From a virus (taxonomy: Duplodnaviria; Heunggongvirae; Uroviricota; Caudoviricetes): 8,052 bases of DNA. The stretch lies in IMG/VR virus record IMGVR_UViG_2713896909_000008; one strand, 5' to 3'. Shown here piece after piece: positions 1,142 to 7,903 of the stretch. The position numbers and the translations under genes are program-made. A model generated the notes under the pieces. It worked only from the letters and a program-made list of their open reading frames with translations. It was not told the DNA's origin and made no database searches. How positions within the stretch are numbered: position 1 is the stretch's first letter; each line of letters begins with the position of its first letter.

Positions 1142-1194
1142 TTAGCCATGACAAACAAAAATGCTTGACCAAATTGTTAGCCATGGCTAATATT
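1142..1194 (+). promoter_or_regulatory. pL-like early-left promoter with two operator sites
   Basis: -35 TTGACC (1165-1170), 18-bp spacer, -10 TAATAT (1189-1194). Operator motif TTAGCCATGACAAA at 1142-1155 and the perfect palindrome TTAGCCATGGCTAA at 1177-1190, which overlaps the -10. Same half-sites as the cro/cI intergenic region. Confidence 0.55.
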
Positions 1195-1270
1195 GCTTGC
1201 ATCAAGACACCGCACGGTGTTCTCAGCAAACAGTTCCGCTACCCCGGCGTTAAGGGGAAATGAGGTCAGC

Positions 1271-1423
1271 ATGGATACTATCGATCTTGGCAACAACGAA
1301 TCTCTGGTGTACGACGTGTTTCCCAACCAGGACGGCACGTTCACCGCGATGACGTATACCAAAAGTAAAACGTTTAAAACCGAAGCTGGCGCGCATCGCT
1401 GGTTAGCAAGAAACTCTGACTGA
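1271..1423 (+). CDS. Small 50-aa prophage protein, first gene of the pL operon (possibly YdaF/DUF1391-like)
   Basis: ATG at 1271 preceded by GAGG (1262-1265). MDTIDLGNNESLVYDVFPNQDGTFTAMTYTKSKTFKTEAGAHRWLARNSD. The track's upstream start at 1193 would sit inside the promoter -10. Family assignment is from memory only. Confidence 0.55.
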   Translation: MDTIDLGNNESLVYDVFPNQDGTFTAMTYTKSKTFKTEAGAHRWLARNSD

Positions 1424-1434
1424 TGAGGTTGACG

Positions 1435-2073
1435 ATGGAATTTAAAGATTTACCTACTTCAATCCAGGAGATTGCAGCACATACACTTCGTCATCGTCTG
1501 AACGAACTTGCATTGGAATCGGTAACGAAAAAAGACACTGATAATATAGCTCGTAATGTGCGCGATGCGTTTACCGGATTGTATTTCTGTGCGTCTATAA
1601 ATAAACACGACTCAGAGAGTGTGGCAAATAAAATTGCAGAAACGACAGCGCAAAACATCAATACGAAACCAACGGAAGAAGAAATTGATCAGTTTGCTCA
1701 TGATGCTGGTTTAAAAAACAAGAAAGAAAAATCGCCATATGCGGGGAACATGTTTGTTTATGACAATCTCATCAGAATTCGTGGCAAAATTCCGGCGGAA
1801 TACCTGGCAAGAGTCCATCAGGCATTGCTTAAAAATCTGGAAACAGAATTATTTGATGGCAACACTAACGGTTTCTTCATGGTATCAGGCCTTGAGAAAG
1901 ACTGGGATGCAGAAAAACGCTGGAATGTTGCTACATGGTTATTCAGTAACAGAGCCGCTGCCCTGGAAGCTTCGGCATGTATTTGCGGCCTGTTCTTAAC
2001 AGACCACAAATATAATCTGGATGTGTACAGTTATATTTACGCTGAACACGGTCCGCTCTGGATTGACTGGTAA
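1435..2073 (+). CDS. Hypothetical protein, 212 aa, AT-rich cargo gene in the sieB/exclusion position
   Basis: Long ORF. Preferred start is ATG 1435 with GAGG (1425-1428) 6 nt upstream; the alternative ATG 1423 overlaps the upstream stop (TGATG) but has no Shine-Dalgarno. No motif I recognise. Visibly more AT-rich than its neighbours. Confidence 0.65.
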   Translation: MEFKDLPTSIQEIAAHTLRHRLNELALESVTKKDTDNIARNVRDAFTGLYFCASINKHDSESVANKIAETTAQNINTKPTEEEIDQFAHDAGLKNKKEKSPYAGNMFVYDNLIRIRGKIPAEYLARVHQALLKNLETELFDGNTNGFFMVSGLEKDWDAEKRWNVATWLFSNRAAALEASACICGLFLTDHKYNLDVYSYIYAEHGPLWIDW

Positions 2074-2283: not shown

Positions 2284-2851
2284 TTTATCCTCCATTGAGG
2301 TTCTGGGTTAAAAATGGAGACCAACACGCTGTCACGTGTGGTCGTGCGCCGGACACGGATAAGAATCCGGTACTGACAGTTTACTGAAAGGATATATCCC
2401 TGAAAAGCCAGGGCATAACGCGAAAGCACACGGCGAAATTGGTCTCTCTGTACGGTGTCGTTAAATTTAATTCGACCGTGCGCTTCCGGTTGTGGCACTC
2501 CGCGAAATGGCGCGGCGGTAAGTATGGCGGGGTTATTCCTTCCCCGTTGAGGACACCGGGTTGTCAGGTTGACCATACGCTTAAGTGACAACCCCGCTAC
2601 AACGCCCTCTGTTATCAATTTTCTGGTGGCGTTTGGCGGTATCAGTTTTACTCCGTGACTGCTCTGCCGCCCTTTTTAAAGTGAATTTTGTGATGCGGTG
2701 AATGCGGCTAAGCGCACGTGGAACAGTTAAAACCAAAAACAGTGTTATGGGTGGATTCTCTGTATCCGGCGTTAATTGTTAACTGGTTAACGTCACCTGG
2801 AGGCACCAGGCACCGCATCAACAAAGTTCATTTGTAAAAATGGAGATAATT

Positions 2852-2986
2852 ATGATTGCTCATCACTTCGGAACTGATGAAATTCCTCGTCAGTGCGTGA
2901 CTCCCGGTGATTATGTTATTCATAAAGGAAGAACATATATTGCTTCGGTAAACAACATTAAAAAAACAACGGCTCTATATTCGTGA
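2852..2986 (+). CDS. Small 44-aa ORF of unknown function (kil-position small protein?)
   Basis: ATG at 2852 preceded by GGAG (2842-2845). [44 protein letters not shown]. Below the track's length cutoff; found by reading the sequence. No family recognised. Confidence 0.3.
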
Positions 2987-3197: not shown

Positions 3198-3900
3198 ATG
3201 AGTAAAGTCTTTATTTGCGCCGCCATTCCGGACGAACAGGCAATAAAGGAAGAAGGTGCAATTGCTGTAGCCACTGCCATTGAAGCCGGTGACGAACGCC
3301 GCGCCCGTGCCAAATTTACCTGGCAATTCCTGGAGCAATATCCGGCTGCTCAGGACTGCGCTTATAAATTTCTTGTCTGCGAGGATAAACCCGGCATGCC
3401 CCGCCCTGCTATCGACTCCTGGGATACCGAATATATGCAGGAAAACCGCTGGGATGAGGAATCCGCTTCCTTTATTCCGGTCGAACCAGAATCCGATCCG
3501 ATGAACGTCAATTTTGACAAGCTGTCCCTTGAAGTACAGAACGCGGTCCTGGTTAAGTTCGGTACATGTGAAAACATCACCGTTGATATGGTGATTAGTG
3601 CTCAGGAATTACTGCAGGAGGACATGGCAACATTCGACGGGCATATCGTTGAGGCATTGATGAAAATGCCTGAAGTTAACGTCATGTATTCAGAGCTTAA
3701 GCTGCTCGCCATCGGGTGGGTTAAACATAAATGTAAGCCGGGTGCAAAATGGCCTGAGATCCAGACAGAATTACGCACCTGGAAAAAACGTCGCGAAGCC
3801 GAACGCAAAGAAACCGGGAAATACACGTCTGTTGTTGATCTTGCCCGCGCCAGAGTCAACCGGCAGAACACTGAAAACTCAGTAGCGACCCCCCCCCCCC
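3198..3900 (+). CDS. RecE N-terminal-like protein, 5' portion, running into the assembly gap
   Basis: ORF from ATG 3198 is open up to the poly-C/N gap. Contains ..ARAKFTWQFLEQY.., which from memory resembles the RecE N-terminus (..EIDFTWSERYQL..). Frame relation across the gap cannot be known. Confidence 0.55.
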
Positions 3901-3961
3901 NNNNNNNNNNNNNNNNNNNNNNNNNNNNNNNNNNNNNNNNNNNNNNNNNNNNNNNNNNNNN
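3889..3961. other. Assembly gap: 12-nt poly-C run followed by 61 N
   Basis: Directly visible: C x12 at 3889-3900, then N x61 at 3901-3961, interrupting an open reading frame on both sides. Confidence 0.95.
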
Positions 3962-5548
3962 CGCAAACAGCCTGATGCCCTTCGCTACGACCGCCAGACT
4001 ATTTTTGGCCTTGTCCGTGAACGTCCGATCGACATTCACAAAGCCCCTGTGGCACTGAACAAATACATTACTGAATACCTGACTACAAAGGGCGTGTTTG
4101 AAGATGAAGGAACAAATCAGAGCGCAACTGATACTCTCTCGTCGCCAGTACCAGAAACTGATGCAGTGGAAACGGCAATTCCGGACAACGAAAAAACCGA
4201 ATGCAAAGTGGAAGTCGAACCATCTGTAGAGCGTGAAGGGCCGTTCTACTTCCTCTTCACCGACAAGGATGGCGAAAAATATGGTCGCGCAAACAAACTT
4301 TCTGGTCTGAATAAGGCGCTGACTGCAGGGGCTACTGAAATCACGAAAGAAGAATATTTTGCCCGCAAAAACGGTACATACTCAGGTTCACAACAAAATA
4401 CTGGTGCATCTGACACGACCGCACAACCAGAGCCGGTAAAAGTTACCGCTGAAGAAGTAAACAAAATTATGCAGGCAGCCAATATCAGCCAGCCTGACGC
4501 CGATAAGTTGCTTGCTGCCTCTCGCGGAGAATTTGTTGCAGGGATTAGCGACCCGAATGATCCGAAATGGGTGAAGGGGATTGAAACCCGCGACTCTGTA
4601 AACCAGAACCAGCAAGAATCGGAACAGAACGACCAGAAAACGGAACAAAACAGCCCAAATGCGCAACAAAACGAGCCAGAAACGAAACAGGTTGAACCAG
4701 TAGCGCAACAGGAGCCGGAAAAAGCCTGCACCGCCTGCGGTCAGACCGGCGGCGGTAGCTGCCCTGATTGTGGTGCGGTGATGGGCGACGCAACATACCA
4801 GGAAATATTCGATGAAGAGAATCAGCCTGAAGTTCAGGAAAATGATCCGGAGGAAATGGAAGGCACTGCGCATCAGCACAAGGAGAACTCTGGCGGCAAT
4901 CAGCATCATGCCAGCGATAGTGAAACTGGCGAGGCGTCAGATCCCTTAATTAAGGTGAACGGTCACCATAATCTCACATCCACCAGCAGAGCGGGGATTC
5001 ATCTGATGATCGACCTTGAAACCATGGGAAAAAATCCTGATGCCCCGATTATCTCAATAGGTGCAATATTTTTCGATCCGCAAACCGGAGATATGGGACC
5101 GGAATTTAGTAAGACTGTCGATCTGGAAACTGCTGGCGGAGTCATTGATCGGGACACCATTAAATGGTGGCTTAAGCAATCACGCGAAGCGCAATCTGCC
5201 ATTATGACCGATGAAATCCCGTTAGATGATGCACTGTTACAATTGCGGGAATTTATCGACGAAAACTCCGGTGAATTTTTTGTTCAGGTCTGGGGAAATG
5301 GAGCAAACTTCGACAACACGATTTTGCGCCGTTCATACGAACGGCAGGGGATCCCCTGCCCGTGGCGTTACTACAACGATCGCGATATACGCACAATCGT
5401 TGAGCTGGGGAAAGCCATAGACTTCGATGCCAGAACTGCTATCCCATTCGAAGGTGAGCGCCATAATGCACTTGATGACGCTCGTTACCAGGCAAAATAC
5501 GTTTCAGCTATCTGGCAAAAACTGATCCCGAGTCAGGCTGATTTTTAA
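3962..5548 (+). CDS. 3' portion of the large gene: acidic Q/E-rich linker, CxxC-x7-CxxC zinc ribbon, C-terminal DnaQ-like DEDDh 3'-5' exonuclease domain
   Basis: Frame is open from the first base after the gap (RKQPDALRYDRQ...) through the track ORF 4049..5548. Zinc ribbon CTACGQTGGGSCPDC at 4727-4771. Exo I MIDLETMG (from 5005), Exo II WGNGANFDNTIL, Exo III HNALDDARY. An internal ATG at 5005 with a GGGGA Shine-Dalgarno could also express the domain alone. Confidence 0.7.
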   Translation, partial: RKQPDALRYDRQTIFGLVRERPIDIHKAPVALNKYITEYLTTKGVFEDEGTNQSATDTLSSPVPETDAVETAIPDNEKTECKVEVEPSVEREGPFYFLFTDKDGEKYGRANKLSGLNKALTAGATEITKEEYFARKNGTYSGSQQNTGASDTTAQPEPVKVTAEEVNKIMQAANISQPDADKLLAASRGEFVAGISDPNDPKWVKGIETRDSVNQNQQESEQNDQKTEQNSPNAQQNEPETKQVEPVAQQEPEKACTACGQTGGGSCPDCGAVMGDATYQEIFDEENQPEVQENDPEEMEGTAHQHKENSGGNQHHASDSETGEASDPLIKVNGHHNLTSTSRAGIHLMIDLETMGKNPDAPIISIGAIFFDPQTGDMGPEFSKTVDLETAGGVIDRDTIKWWLKQSREAQSAIMTDEIPLDDALLQLREFIDENSGEFFVQVWGNGANFDNTILRRSYERQGIPCPWRYYNDRDIRTIVELGKAIDFDARTAIPFEGERHNALDDARYQAKYVSAIWQKLIPSQADF

Positions 5549-5600: not shown

Positions 5601-5810
5601 ATGGCTATGAGCAGCTTATTTTTAACCGAAGATGAATTGCTAATATTAACGGGCTGCAAATATGCAAGCCACCAGCGAAAATGGTTAATGGAAAACGGGC
5701 TTCCGTTCTATACCAATCGTAGTGGCAAACCGATTGTCAGCCGGGATCTATTTACCTGCAATAAAACTTTACCACCGCGCGAGGTAGAGCCGAATTTTGG
5801 TGCAATCTGA
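5601..5810 (+). CDS. Small DUF4224-like protein in the excisionase position, translationally coupled to the integrase
   Basis: 69-aa ORF immediately upstream of int, with its stop overlapping the int start (TGATG at 5808-5812). Small proteins of this kind typically precede lambdoid integrases. DUF4224 assignment is from memory. Confidence 0.6.
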   Translation: MAMSSLFLTEDELLILTGCKYASHQRKWLMENGLPFYTNRSGKPIVSRDLFTCNKTLPPREVEPNFGAI

Positions 5811-6835
5811 TGGGAAGACGAAGGAAAAATCCTGAACACGAAAAATTACCTCCAAATGTATACCCAAATAAATATAGTTATGTATGGAAACCAACATCCA
5901 GAGAATCTGTCACACTAACCGCCATCAAGGATGGTTTAGCTGCTTTATGGAAAAAGTATGAGGAAACTGTAAATAATCGCGATCGCGCAATGACATTCGG
6001 TCGCTTGTGGGAAAAATTCCTCGCCAACGCCTATTACAGTGACCTCAGTCCAAGAACACAAAAAGATTATCTGCAACATCAAAAAAAGTTGCTTGCCGTA
6101 TTCGGTAAGGTGCCGGCAGATTCCATAAAACCAGAACACATCCGTCGATACATGGACAAGAGAGGGGAACAGAGTAAAACGCAAGCCAACCATGAAAAAA
6201 GCAGTATGTCCCGCGTTTACAGTTGGGGGTATGAGCGAGGGTACGTGAAGGGTAACCCATGTGCAGGTGTAAGTAAATTCAAGGCCAAAAACCGCGAACG
6301 ATATGTAACCGACAAAGAATACCAGGCAGTATTAAGTGTTGCACCTCTTCCTGTTTTTATCGCAATGGAAATTGCCTATCTGTGTGCAGCGAGGGTTTCC
6401 GATGTGTTATCACTGAAATGGGAGCAGATTGGAAGCGACGGGATCTTTATCCAGCAAGGGAAAACAGGGAAAAAACAGATAAAAGCATGGAGTCCACGAT
6501 TACAGGCGGCGATCGAAAAAGCAAAACAGTTACCAACATCTGCCTATGTAATCAGCAATCAATATGGCAACCGATATATGTACAAAGGTTTTAACGAAAT
6601 GTGGGTAGAAGCAAGAAATCACGCAGGCAAAATTTCAGGTATTTTAACCGACTTCACCTTTCATGAGCTGAAGGCGAAAGGAATTTCAGACTATGAAGGA
6701 AGCAGCCGGGATAAGCAACTTTTCTCTGGTCACAAAACCGAAGGGCAAGTGCTAATCTATGACAGAAAGGTTAAAGTTTCACCAACACTTGATGTCCCGT
6801 TATCTGATAATATTCCAAGAAAATATTCCAAGTAA
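5810..6835 (+). CDS. int: Lambda-family tyrosine integrase
   Basis: 341 aa. N-terminus MGRRRKNPEHEKLPPNVYP resembles lambda Int (MGRRRSHERRDLPPNLYIR). Catalytic region has R (AARVSD), H-E-L-K, GHK and the Y of LIYDR with lambda-like spacing. Lies beside a tRNA-derived att core. Confidence 0.9.
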   Translation: MGRRRKNPEHEKLPPNVYPNKYSYVWKPTSRESVTLTAIKDGLAALWKKYEETVNNRDRAMTFGRLWEKFLANAYYSDLSPRTQKDYLQHQKKLLAVFGKVPADSIKPEHIRRYMDKRGEQSKTQANHEKSSMSRVYSWGYERGYVKGNPCAGVSKFKAKNRERYVTDKEYQAVLSVAPLPVFIAMEIAYLCAARVSDVLSLKWEQIGSDGIFIQQGKTGKKQIKAWSPRLQAAIEKAKQLPTSAYVISNQYGNRYMYKGFNEMWVEARNHAGKISGILTDFTFHELKAKGISDYEGSSRDKQLFSGHKTEGQVLIYDRKVKVSPTLDVPLSDNIPRKYSK

Positions 6836-6887: not shown

Positions 6888-6953
6888 TGGCGGAGAGAGG
6901 GGGATTTGAACCCCCGGTGGAGTTGCCCCCACTCCGGTTTTCGAGACCGGTCC
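6888..6953 (-). other. att core: 3'-terminal 66 nt of a tRNA-Ser(CGA) gene (anticodon arm, variable arm, T arm, acceptor 3' strand, CCA); 5' half absent
   Basis: Minus strand reads GGACCGGTCTCGAAAACCGGAGTGGGGGCAACTCCACCGGGGGTTCAAATCCCCCTCTCTCCGCCA. This matches the 3' part of E. coli serU as remembered, with a compensatory pair change in the variable arm. No GGAGAGA acceptor 5' strand or D arm is present upstream. Confidence 0.7.
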
Positions 6954-7033
6954 AATCATCAAACGAAACATAAAATTAGCTCACATTATGAGGAAAAGTA
7001 TCTTTTTTGTACTATGTAAATTCAAAGGCTTAG

Positions 7034-7903
<870 letters not shown>

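Follow-up and report, generated by a model that had tools for sequence, protein, structure and literature searches.

A dicF-type non-coding RNA cassette with two further conserved RNA structures in the early-left operon of a Qin/Rac-like prophage

What is encoded by a block of prophage DNA that lies between two genes, holds several inverted repeats and offers no convincing open reading frame? This question is raised by positions 2296–2851 of the 8,052-nt DNA analysed here (the whole stretch is called the window below). A sequence-only reading had taken the block for a structured RNA or a regulatory region or, alternatively, for the remains of a decayed coding sequence. A match to the small RNA DicF and covariation at 2489–2603 and 2673–2838 support the view that the block is a structured RNA. 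It is very probably a non-coding RNA cassette within the dicBF-type early-left operon of an E. coli lambdoid prophage that resembles Qin and Rac.

The surroundings are those of a dicBF-type operon: DicA/DicC immunity is present, the gene of a cell-division inhibitor lies downstream, and the gene order is that of K-12 Qin (Table 1). Window positions 2343–2832 are about 95% identical to the ydfC-dicB spacer of K-12 Qin, where dicF (b1574) is annotated; the terminator is the same and has the same place in the operon, 3' of dicC, dicA and ydfA. The upstream genes are different, namely the 216-aa ORF and the minus-strand 69-aa gene in the window and ydfB and ydfC in Qin. The cargo differs as well, since Qin carries dicB-ydfD and the window a frameshifted kil. 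The cargo preceded by the cassette is a truncated kil. The frameshift results from one extra A in the run at 2960–2966, whereas in a near-identical locus (L001) kil is intact and encodes 73 aa. Because kil is frameshifted here, the cassette may sit in a decaying prophage. Functional phages also carry the region, and the annotation of phage Tritos has DicF at the same place. The sigma-70-like sequence just 3' of dicA is, judged by its sequence and position, the probable counterpart of dicBp, the PL-like promoter described as DicA-repressed (PMC10448788), and would drive the whole polycistronic plus-strand transcript.

Table 1. Features of the window in and around the non-coding block. MFE, minimum free energy fold.
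Feature	Position	Strand	Evidence or remark
DicC	383-613	minus	157.6 bits (cut-off 130)
DicA	697-1104	plus	235.7 bits (cut-off 101)
Sigma-70-like promoter TTGACC-17-TAATAT	1165-1193	plus	consensus scan; just 3' of dicA
YdfA/DUF1391	within 1193-1423		93.4 bits
216-aa ORF	1423-2073		
Small gene (69 aa)	2074-2295	minus	
Non-coding block	2296-2851	plus	
Leader	2296-2488	plus	lineage-specific; folded domain ~2316-2448 and hairpin 2449-2481 (MFE)
Module B	2489-2603	plus	four-helix junction RNA with pseudoknot, ~115 nt
Module B, helix P1	2489-2496 / 2596-2603		
Module B, helix P2	2500-2504 / 2511-2515		
Module B, helix P3	2528-2532 / 2542-2546		
Module B, helix P4	2558-2566 / 2586-2594		perfect 9-bp inverted repeat
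Module B, pseudoknot	2522-2527 / 2573-2578		GUAUGG with CCAUAC
Predicted hairpin GUUAUCAA/UUUUCU/GGUGGCG	2611-2631	plus	MFE folds
DicF small RNA, 53 nt	2620/2621-2672	plus	Rfam RF00039
DicF Rho-independent terminator	stem 2635-2671, U-tract 2673-2677	plus	
Module D, structured 5' UTR, 166 nt	2673-2838	plus	
Module D, closing helix	2673-2700 with 2811-2838		~23 bp
Module D, small invariant hairpin	~2703-2716		followed by a variable insert
Module D, hairpin GGCGUUAAUUGUUAACUGGUUAACGUC			contains the GTTAA hexamers; conserved loop UUGUUAACUGG
Module D, hairpin CCUGG-AGGCA-CCAGG			contains CACCTGG/CACCAGG
Shine-Dalgarno GGAG of kil	2841-2844	plus	ATG at 2852
Truncated kil (FtsZ inhibitor)	2852-2986	plus	NCBIfam PRK11354, 81.8 bits, residues 1-39 of 73
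Exonuclease VIII	3198-5548		
DUF4224 protein	5601-5810		
Integrase	5810-6835		

The Rfam scan proposed in the sequence-only reading returned DicF (RF00039) at 2621–2672 with 76.4 bits (gathering score 48, E = 5e-16, model positions 1–52 of 52). The structure that had been described as a terminator-like hairpin (GGCGG at 2635–2639 and CCGCC at 2667–2671, followed by C and TTTTT at 2672–2677) is therefore the DicF terminator. Its stem, GGCGGUAUCAG...CUGCUCUGCCGCC, precedes UUUUU and has a stability of about -16 kcal/mol. DicF has been known since 1989–90 and is a textbook prophage small RNA by which cell division is blocked and sugar metabolism rewired. A single exchange in 53 nt, A10G in the 5' seed, distinguishes the window copy from that of K-12 (GGUGGCG here, GGUGACG in b1574). 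In K-12, DicF acts together with Hfq and represses ftsZ, xylR, pykA and manX by base pairing (PMC10448788, PMC5069750). Given the identity to the K-12 copy, DicF of the window should be active as well, and expression of the region is likewise expected from its K-12 homologue.

Of 5426 complete E. coli genomes, 4723 contain the region in part or in full, frequently in several copies. Sensitive blastn searches against phages revealed that the block is a mosaic whose parts occur separately. The part around 2489–2611, which contains the structure here called module B, also exists apart from DicF, with 90% identity in cdtI-type and Stx2c phages and 77% in P1/P7-type phages. The part around 2694–2817, which belongs to module D, occurs alone in P7, D6 and one Klebsiella phage, and approximately 2667–2851 is located upstream of kil in Rac-like phages. 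Among 120 viral contigs with DicF the block is 86–97% identical; its left edges vary, and its right edge is fixed at 2832, just before the Shine-Dalgarno sequence of whichever gene comes next. At least 80% of the region is carried by 3481 of the 5426 E. coli genomes (at least 64%), and module B is consequently present in these genomes, too.

All four sequence features pointed out in the sequence-only reading are present, with coordinates that were off by 1–2 nt. The claim that the block is GC-rich applies to 2489–2603 (57.4%), which is the only clearly richer part; for the region overall the excess is modest (49.1% vs 44.8% for the whole window). Taken as a whole, the region is not unusually stable (z = -1.8 for 2330–2685). 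The perfect 9-bp inverted repeat, previously placed at 2559–2567 and 2587–2595, consists of GGGTTGTCA at 2558–2566 and TGACAACCC at 2586–2594; the loop comprises 19 nt, with TTGACC at 2569. Since 63 of 1000 dinucleotide shuffles (6.3%) also contain a perfect repeat of 9 bp or longer around a loop of 3–40 nt, the case for a structured RNA rests on compensatory changes in homologues.

Such changes are found in module B, in which the 9-bp repeat forms helix P4. Viral contigs, together with a single genome of each species, yielded 244 instances of module B, which originate from Escherichia, Shigella, Citrobacter, Trabulsiella, Erwinia, Izhakiella and P1/P7-type phages. In an alignment of 26 distinct sequences 93.8% of the cells are paired and 10 pairs are changed on both sides. 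None of 500 shuffles reaches the observed values, and slid partners pair in 32–55% only. In helix P4, GUUGUCA/UGACAAC of the window is replaced by GUUGCCA/UGGCAAC in phage P1 and by GGGUAACCA/UGGUUACCC in Izhakiella. Helix P3 reads CGGGG/CCCCG here and CUGGG/CCCAG, CAGGG/CCCUG or CGAGG/CCUCG elsewhere, and in helix P1 GGC/GCU is exchanged for GGU/ACC. The pseudoknot, whose 3' partner lies within the almost invariant 19-nt loop of P4, covaries as well (GUAUGG/CCAUAC here, GCAUGG/CCAUGC in phage P1). Single-sequence MFE folding also recovers helices P1–P4, both for the window and for seven other lineages. A covariance model built from the module B alignment (R1) scores the window copy with 149 bits and finds exactly one copy of module B in each locus searched. 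G-U pairs are frequent in the module B helices, which assigns the structure to the plus-strand RNA.

The same observations bear on the proposal that the region is a decayed protein-coding remnant with incidental inverted repeats, which we regard as extremely improbable and reject. Mechanical ORFs do extend into the region (a minus-strand ORF of 129 aa at 2229–2618 and plus-strand ORFs of 49, 38 and 39 aa), PGAP labels a partial 'DicB' pseudogene at the L001 equivalent of window positions 2742–2825, and hypothetical proteins are annotated over the region in several phage records. However, no ORF matches a Pfam or NCBIfam family, including the 39-aa ORF at 2718–2837 under the 'DicB' label. The indels in homologues are not multiples of three and thus shift the frame, the substitutions in the RNA helices are compensatory, and the block retains about 90–95% identity while the flanking genes are swapped. 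In module B the P3 loop has indels of 1–5 nt, which rules out coding. No intact gene was seen at this place in the homologues. The earlier description of the block as ORF-free is therefore justified in the useful sense, as the overlapping mechanical ORFs lack family matches and are broken in homologues.

Very unlikely, too, is that the region acts as DNA, with divergent promoters or operators that serve the minus-strand 69-aa gene on one side and plus-strand kil on the other. The region is indeed located between these genes, and two weak minus-strand promoter-like matches were detected (2311–2282 and 2782–2755). However, four promoter-like matches in the region compare with 4.3 expected from shuffles, which is chance level; no internal promoter was found in the K-12 operon (PMC10448788), and the G-U pairs of the conserved helices fit a plus-strand RNA only. 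The region is a segment of one plus-strand operon transcript rather than a divergent promoter region for the minus-strand 69-aa gene. The GTTAA(T/C) hexamers (2771, 2778 and 2786) and the heptamers CACCTGG (2794) and CACCAGG (2804) had been listed as short repeated motifs; they are stems of RNA hairpins and not protein-binding repeats.

These hairpins are part of module D, the second structure supported by the covariance analysis in related prophages. Its fold has a z-score of -5.6 against shuffles. In 37 diverse sequences the structure comprises 46 pairs with 89.5% of the cells paired, and 22 pairs are changed on both sides; again, none of 500 shuffles reaches the observed values, and slid controls pair in 32–41%. 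As in module B, G-U pairs possible on the plus strand only are frequent in the conserved helices. Module D has the closing helix and two 3' hairpins in common with STnc100/PasD (RF02076), and these 3' hairpins align to the model consensus with compensatory swaps from G-C to U-A (CCUGG/CCAGG in module D, CCGGG/CCCGG in STnc100). The first hairpin of module D differs from the consensus of the STnc100 model. The window copy (2674–2859) aligns in full length with 36.4 bits and misses the STnc100 gathering score of 47. Across module D variants the scores range from 34.6 to 51.3 bits, and two sister variants pass (51.3 and 48.2). Consequently, module D is a divergent branch of STnc100.

The two RNAs differ in their genomic context. 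The STnc100 copy reported 3' of stx2 is a separate small RNA gene (PMC12370729), whereas module D has no terminator of its own and constitutes the 5' UTR of kil, dicB or terB. The gene directly 3' of module D is always kil, dicB or terB/tciA. The U-tract of the DicF terminator forms the beginning of the closing helix, whose other end lies 2 nt ahead of the kil Shine-Dalgarno sequence; hence, module D would be restricted to read-through transcripts. It would be made, together with kil, solely by polymerases that pass the DicF terminator, and its long helix might serve as a second processing or stability site, possibly for RNase III.

Upstream of module B, the leader (2296–2488) is kept among close relatives only. 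RNAalifold on eight divergent relatives yields no conserved pairs in this segment, so that the locally folded domain is either lineage-specific or not meaningful. In K-12, RNase III generates a 190-nt DicF species, which RNase E trims to the 53-nt DicF, and the operon is driven by dicBp (PMC10448788). Mapped by length onto the window, the 5' end of the 190-nt species would fall at about 2483–2488, at the 3' foot of hairpin 2449–2481, where RNase III would cut. This end is situated 1–6 nt before helix P1 of module B, and the 5' end of DicF 17 nt after module B. The 190-nt RNA thus corresponds to module B plus DicF, with module B as its 5' two-thirds. According to MFE folds, the 5' end of DicF is paired in a second hairpin (2611–2631), and the mature 5' end (2620/2621) lies in its A/U loop. 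This pairing suggests that the seed is masked in the precursor until RNase E cuts, for which the A/U loop is a plausible entry site.

The dicF locus itself is already known, and the downstream element is within a known family. Module B may therefore be the sole part of the cassette with possible novelty. It has no entry in Rfam 15, and no Rfam match was obtained for the window copy, even at permissive thresholds, nor for the copies of phage P1 and phage cdtI; the sole match in a permissive scan of 2296–2625 was mascRNA at chance level (E = 3.4). A description of module B was not found in the searchable literature, covering the DicF papers and keywords, although an older description is possible, and an exact-sequence literature search with the P4 loop gave no result.

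What accompanies module B in its different settings is a terminator. A hairpin followed by a T-run is located within 110 nt 3' of module B in 240 of the 244 instances, with a cut-off of -8 kcal/mol and a reach of 110 nt. In three of the four unscored instances, from Trabulsiella and Izhakiella, inspection by eye or a wider fold shows a long-loop GGCGG...CCGCC hairpin and a U-tract; the remaining one, from Erwinia, has a hairpin and T-run just short of the cut-off. The terminators themselves vary between the DicF type, GCCCAUCUUCGGGUGGGC in P1/P7 and several others. Module B is better conserved than the part 3' of it, which contains seed and terminator.

The distance of module B from the promoter varies as well. 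In the Qin type it is preceded by about 1.3 kb of the operon, whereas in phage cdtI a PL-like promoter lies about 285 nt upstream of it. In cdtI-type prophages from four genera it lies between a cI-like repressor gene and a conserved gene pair, and the interval from the repressor gene to module B contains no N gene. Phage P1 contains a 'dicF-like region' (AF234172, 68791–68892) at the start of a repressor-controlled early operon with tRNA genes, tciA and ban downstream. This region contains a homologue of module B (R1 scores of 94–97 bits) followed by an intrinsic terminator. Helix P1, the closing stem, is absent or different there, the terminator is unrelated to DicF, and the Rfam DicF model gave no match at E <= 0.001. 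Module B starts about 30 nt after the -10 element of the C1-controlled promoter Pban, and the distance from the start to the end of the terminator is about 180 nt.

A 'mini' form consisting of the helix P1 hairpin only (GGUUGUG-AAUA-ACAAC) is found in at least 120 viral contigs. Phage phiSTEC1589, which has N, carries this mini hairpin only, and the Shigella phage 75/02 Stx has a 3' remnant of module B only. These two phages first suggested a rule by which the presence of N goes with loss of module B and the absence of N with its retention. However, of 91 mini loci whose upstream sequence was long enough, 68 have a YdfA-like gene there, and an N-like protein was not seen among the most frequent ORF clusters upstream. 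Owing to these two observations, the candidate rule was rejected.

On this basis we tentatively propose, as possible though short of probable, that module B is a distinct, so far undescribed class of structured RNA of enterobacterial temperate phages, built as a four-way junction with a loop-junction pseudoknot. Module B and an intrinsic terminator would be exchanged as one unit among the early operons of lambdoid and P1-type phages, and module B would either govern read-through into host-killing cargo genes or act in trans as a stable RNA set free during DicF maturation. Two narrower roles, each rather doubtful when taken alone, appear equally plausible.

The first is that of a cis-acting controller of the next terminator, either as a processive antiterminator RNA or as a riboswitch-like sensor, which decides between the short RNA and the toxic cargo (kil, dicB or the ban operon). 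Every instance of module B has a terminator 3' of it despite the differing terminator sequences, and module B is promoter-proximal in phage P1 and in cdtI-type prophages. In the latter no N gene separates it from the repressor gene, nor in the Erwinia and Izhakiella relatives, and expression of exonuclease, xis and int in these operons requires read-through. The nearly invariant junction and loop residues and the covarying pseudoknot are typical of ligand- or protein-binding RNAs. Since no protein gene is common to all three contexts, any partner should be a host factor or a small ligand.

However, mini loci without the module B core are at least as common and belong mostly to the same YdfA-type operons. 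As no N-like protein was conspicuous among the common ORF clusters upstream of them, module B is not necessary for passing the terminator. A conserved antiterminator pairing with the varied terminators was not found either; an alternative CAAC/GUUG hairpin is confined to three lineages and is not conserved across terminator types. With regard to a riboswitch, the observations are a conserved structured domain, a terminator that is always located 3' of it, and no alternative pairing conserved across terminator types.

Module B was also compared with put of phage HK022 and with EAR of Bacillus. In each case a structured RNA of an early or long operon precedes terminators, and an N gene was not seen in the operon, but this is a functional analogy only. 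Natural variants without module B exist in the same operon type. The put RNA comprises about 70 nt with two stem-loops and is present in two copies, putL and putR, one for each early operon (PMC9378689). In comparison with this published description, module B is larger (about 115 nt), has four helices and a pseudoknot, and is present in a single copy per phage genome. With R1, a second copy on the PR side, as for putR, was found neither in the whole cdtI genome nor in 28 other sources. The HK022 record was not among the matches listed in blastn of the region against phages. As no sequence match was listed and the architecture differs, homology of module B to put was rejected, and these differences also speak against a cis-acting controller.

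In the second role, module B would form a stable RNA domain by itself or provide the 190-nt 'long DicF' with a scaffold. After cleavage by RNase III at the 5' side and RNase E at the 3' side, it would be released as a highly structured fragment of about 135 nt that acts in trans, for instance through binding to a host protein, or it would shield the 3' part with the seed and time its release. In favour of such a role, the 190-nt species accumulates in K-12 and is the substrate of RNase E (PMC10448788), and both ends of module B lie close to the processing sites, 1–6 nt after the length-mapped 5' end and 17 nt before DicF. Promoter, module B and terminator of phage P1 would give an RNA of about 180 nt, which is nearly the same size. 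The higher conservation of module B compared to the seed and terminator part and the predicted masking of the DicF seed in the precursor point in the same direction. On the other hand, mini loci have DicF-like terminators without the module B core.

Our preferred view is that module B is an RNA domain with a function and is coupled to the terminator found 3' of it in every instance. In the proposed sequence of events, module B most likely sets the share of polymerases that stop for the short RNA against those that continue into the toxic cargo; this is the least-supported step.

As a DicF locus, the region is a case of routine annotation. Useful beyond this is the organisation of the non-coding block around DicF, which consists of three separable RNA modules, namely module B, DicF with its terminator, and module D. 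These recombine independently among lambdoid and P1-like phages and are always located before small toxic genes (kil, dicB, tciA/terB). In experiments, module B has figured only as an unnamed 5' portion of the '190-nt DicF'. If it controls termination or acts in trans, this would explain how toxic genes are metered in early-left operons in which no N gene is seen.

The DicF small RNA differs from its K-12 counterpart at position 10 (window position 2629), where G is found instead of A (GGUGGCG vs. GGUGACG). This exchange falls inside the 5' seed region and would convert a U-A pair to U-G in the predicted seed-masking hairpin. Among the homologous loci compared, the G10 variant is present only in L001, which is nearly identical to the window, and in L050 and L107. 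Downstream, a single surplus A in the A-run at 2960-2966 shortens kil, the FtsZ-inhibitor gene, to 44 aa; in L001 (99.5% identical) kil is intact and encodes 73 aa. Either the toxic gene has been inactivated by a genuine frameshift, or the surplus base is a homopolymer sequencing error.

The 5' part of module B (GGCAYNNCGCGAAANNNNCGGCG), the pseudoknotted RNA domain upstream of DicF, recurs about 82 nt upstream as one arm of a direct repeat with 71% identity. The upstream copy resembles leader sequences at the loci of cdtI, Izhakiella and E. coli ECMA0423; it may have arisen by partial duplication or may serve as an alternative partner for pairing.

In cdtI-type prophages, the terminator after module B is followed by a sequence that is conserved between genera (ACAGARAAGAGCAUC..CGACGGGYUCAUAACCCAA.CCACCCGGGCG). 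Mechanically called ORFs cross it in one frame (...GRRAHNPIHPG...); a small coding region that annotation missed and a further RNA element are both possible. Separately, an Rfam C4 antisense RNA match (68.4 bits) adjoins isrK (60 bits) in phage cdtI (L126 40-228, minus strand); this pair lies near replication-side genes and is unrelated to the DicF region.

Positions of features in the window and in homologous loci
Feature	Locus	Position	Strand
Direct repeat, upstream copy	window	2412-2435	
Direct repeat, copy in module B	window	2494-2517	
Equivalent of the partial DicB pseudogene (RefSeq/PGAP label)	window	2742-2825	
The labeled pseudogene itself	L001	3947-4030	
kil, shortened	window	2852-2986	
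Exonuclease VIII-like ORFs	window	3198-4058, 4049-5548	
Run of N	window	3901-3961	
Partial tRNA-like sequence (TGGCGGAGAGAGGGGGATTTGAACCCCC...)	window	6888-6984	minus
274-aa GIY-YIG protein	window	7079-7903	
Conserved post-terminator sequence	L126 (phage cdtI)	2680-2760	
Same, cdtI-type prophage	L262	2590-2680	
Same, cdtI-type prophage	L261	~4740-4830	

The exonuclease VIII-like gene appears as two ORFs because 61 N (masked or unknown bases) lie inside its reading frame. The partial tRNA-like sequence directly follows the integrase gene. It matches Rfam tRNA-Sec with 31.4 bits, which is below threshold, and ARAGORN found no complete tRNA there. It probably represents the 3' portion of a tRNA gene that was duplicated at the attachment site of the prophage. 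A nuclease domain of the LEM-3-like GIY-YIG type (54 bits) is present in the 274-aa protein encoded past the integrase and this fragment, outside the prophage.

In thousands of E. coli genomes, part of module D, the STnc100-related structured region ahead of kil, carries the RefSeq/PGAP label of a pseudogene, partial 'cell division inhibition protein DicB'. This probably arises from DicB proteins in the databases, some of which are extended in-frame upstream through module D (cf. the mEp460 record, in which DicB is annotated as 94 aa). The DicB label thereby seems to mis-annotate a structured 5' UTR systematically.
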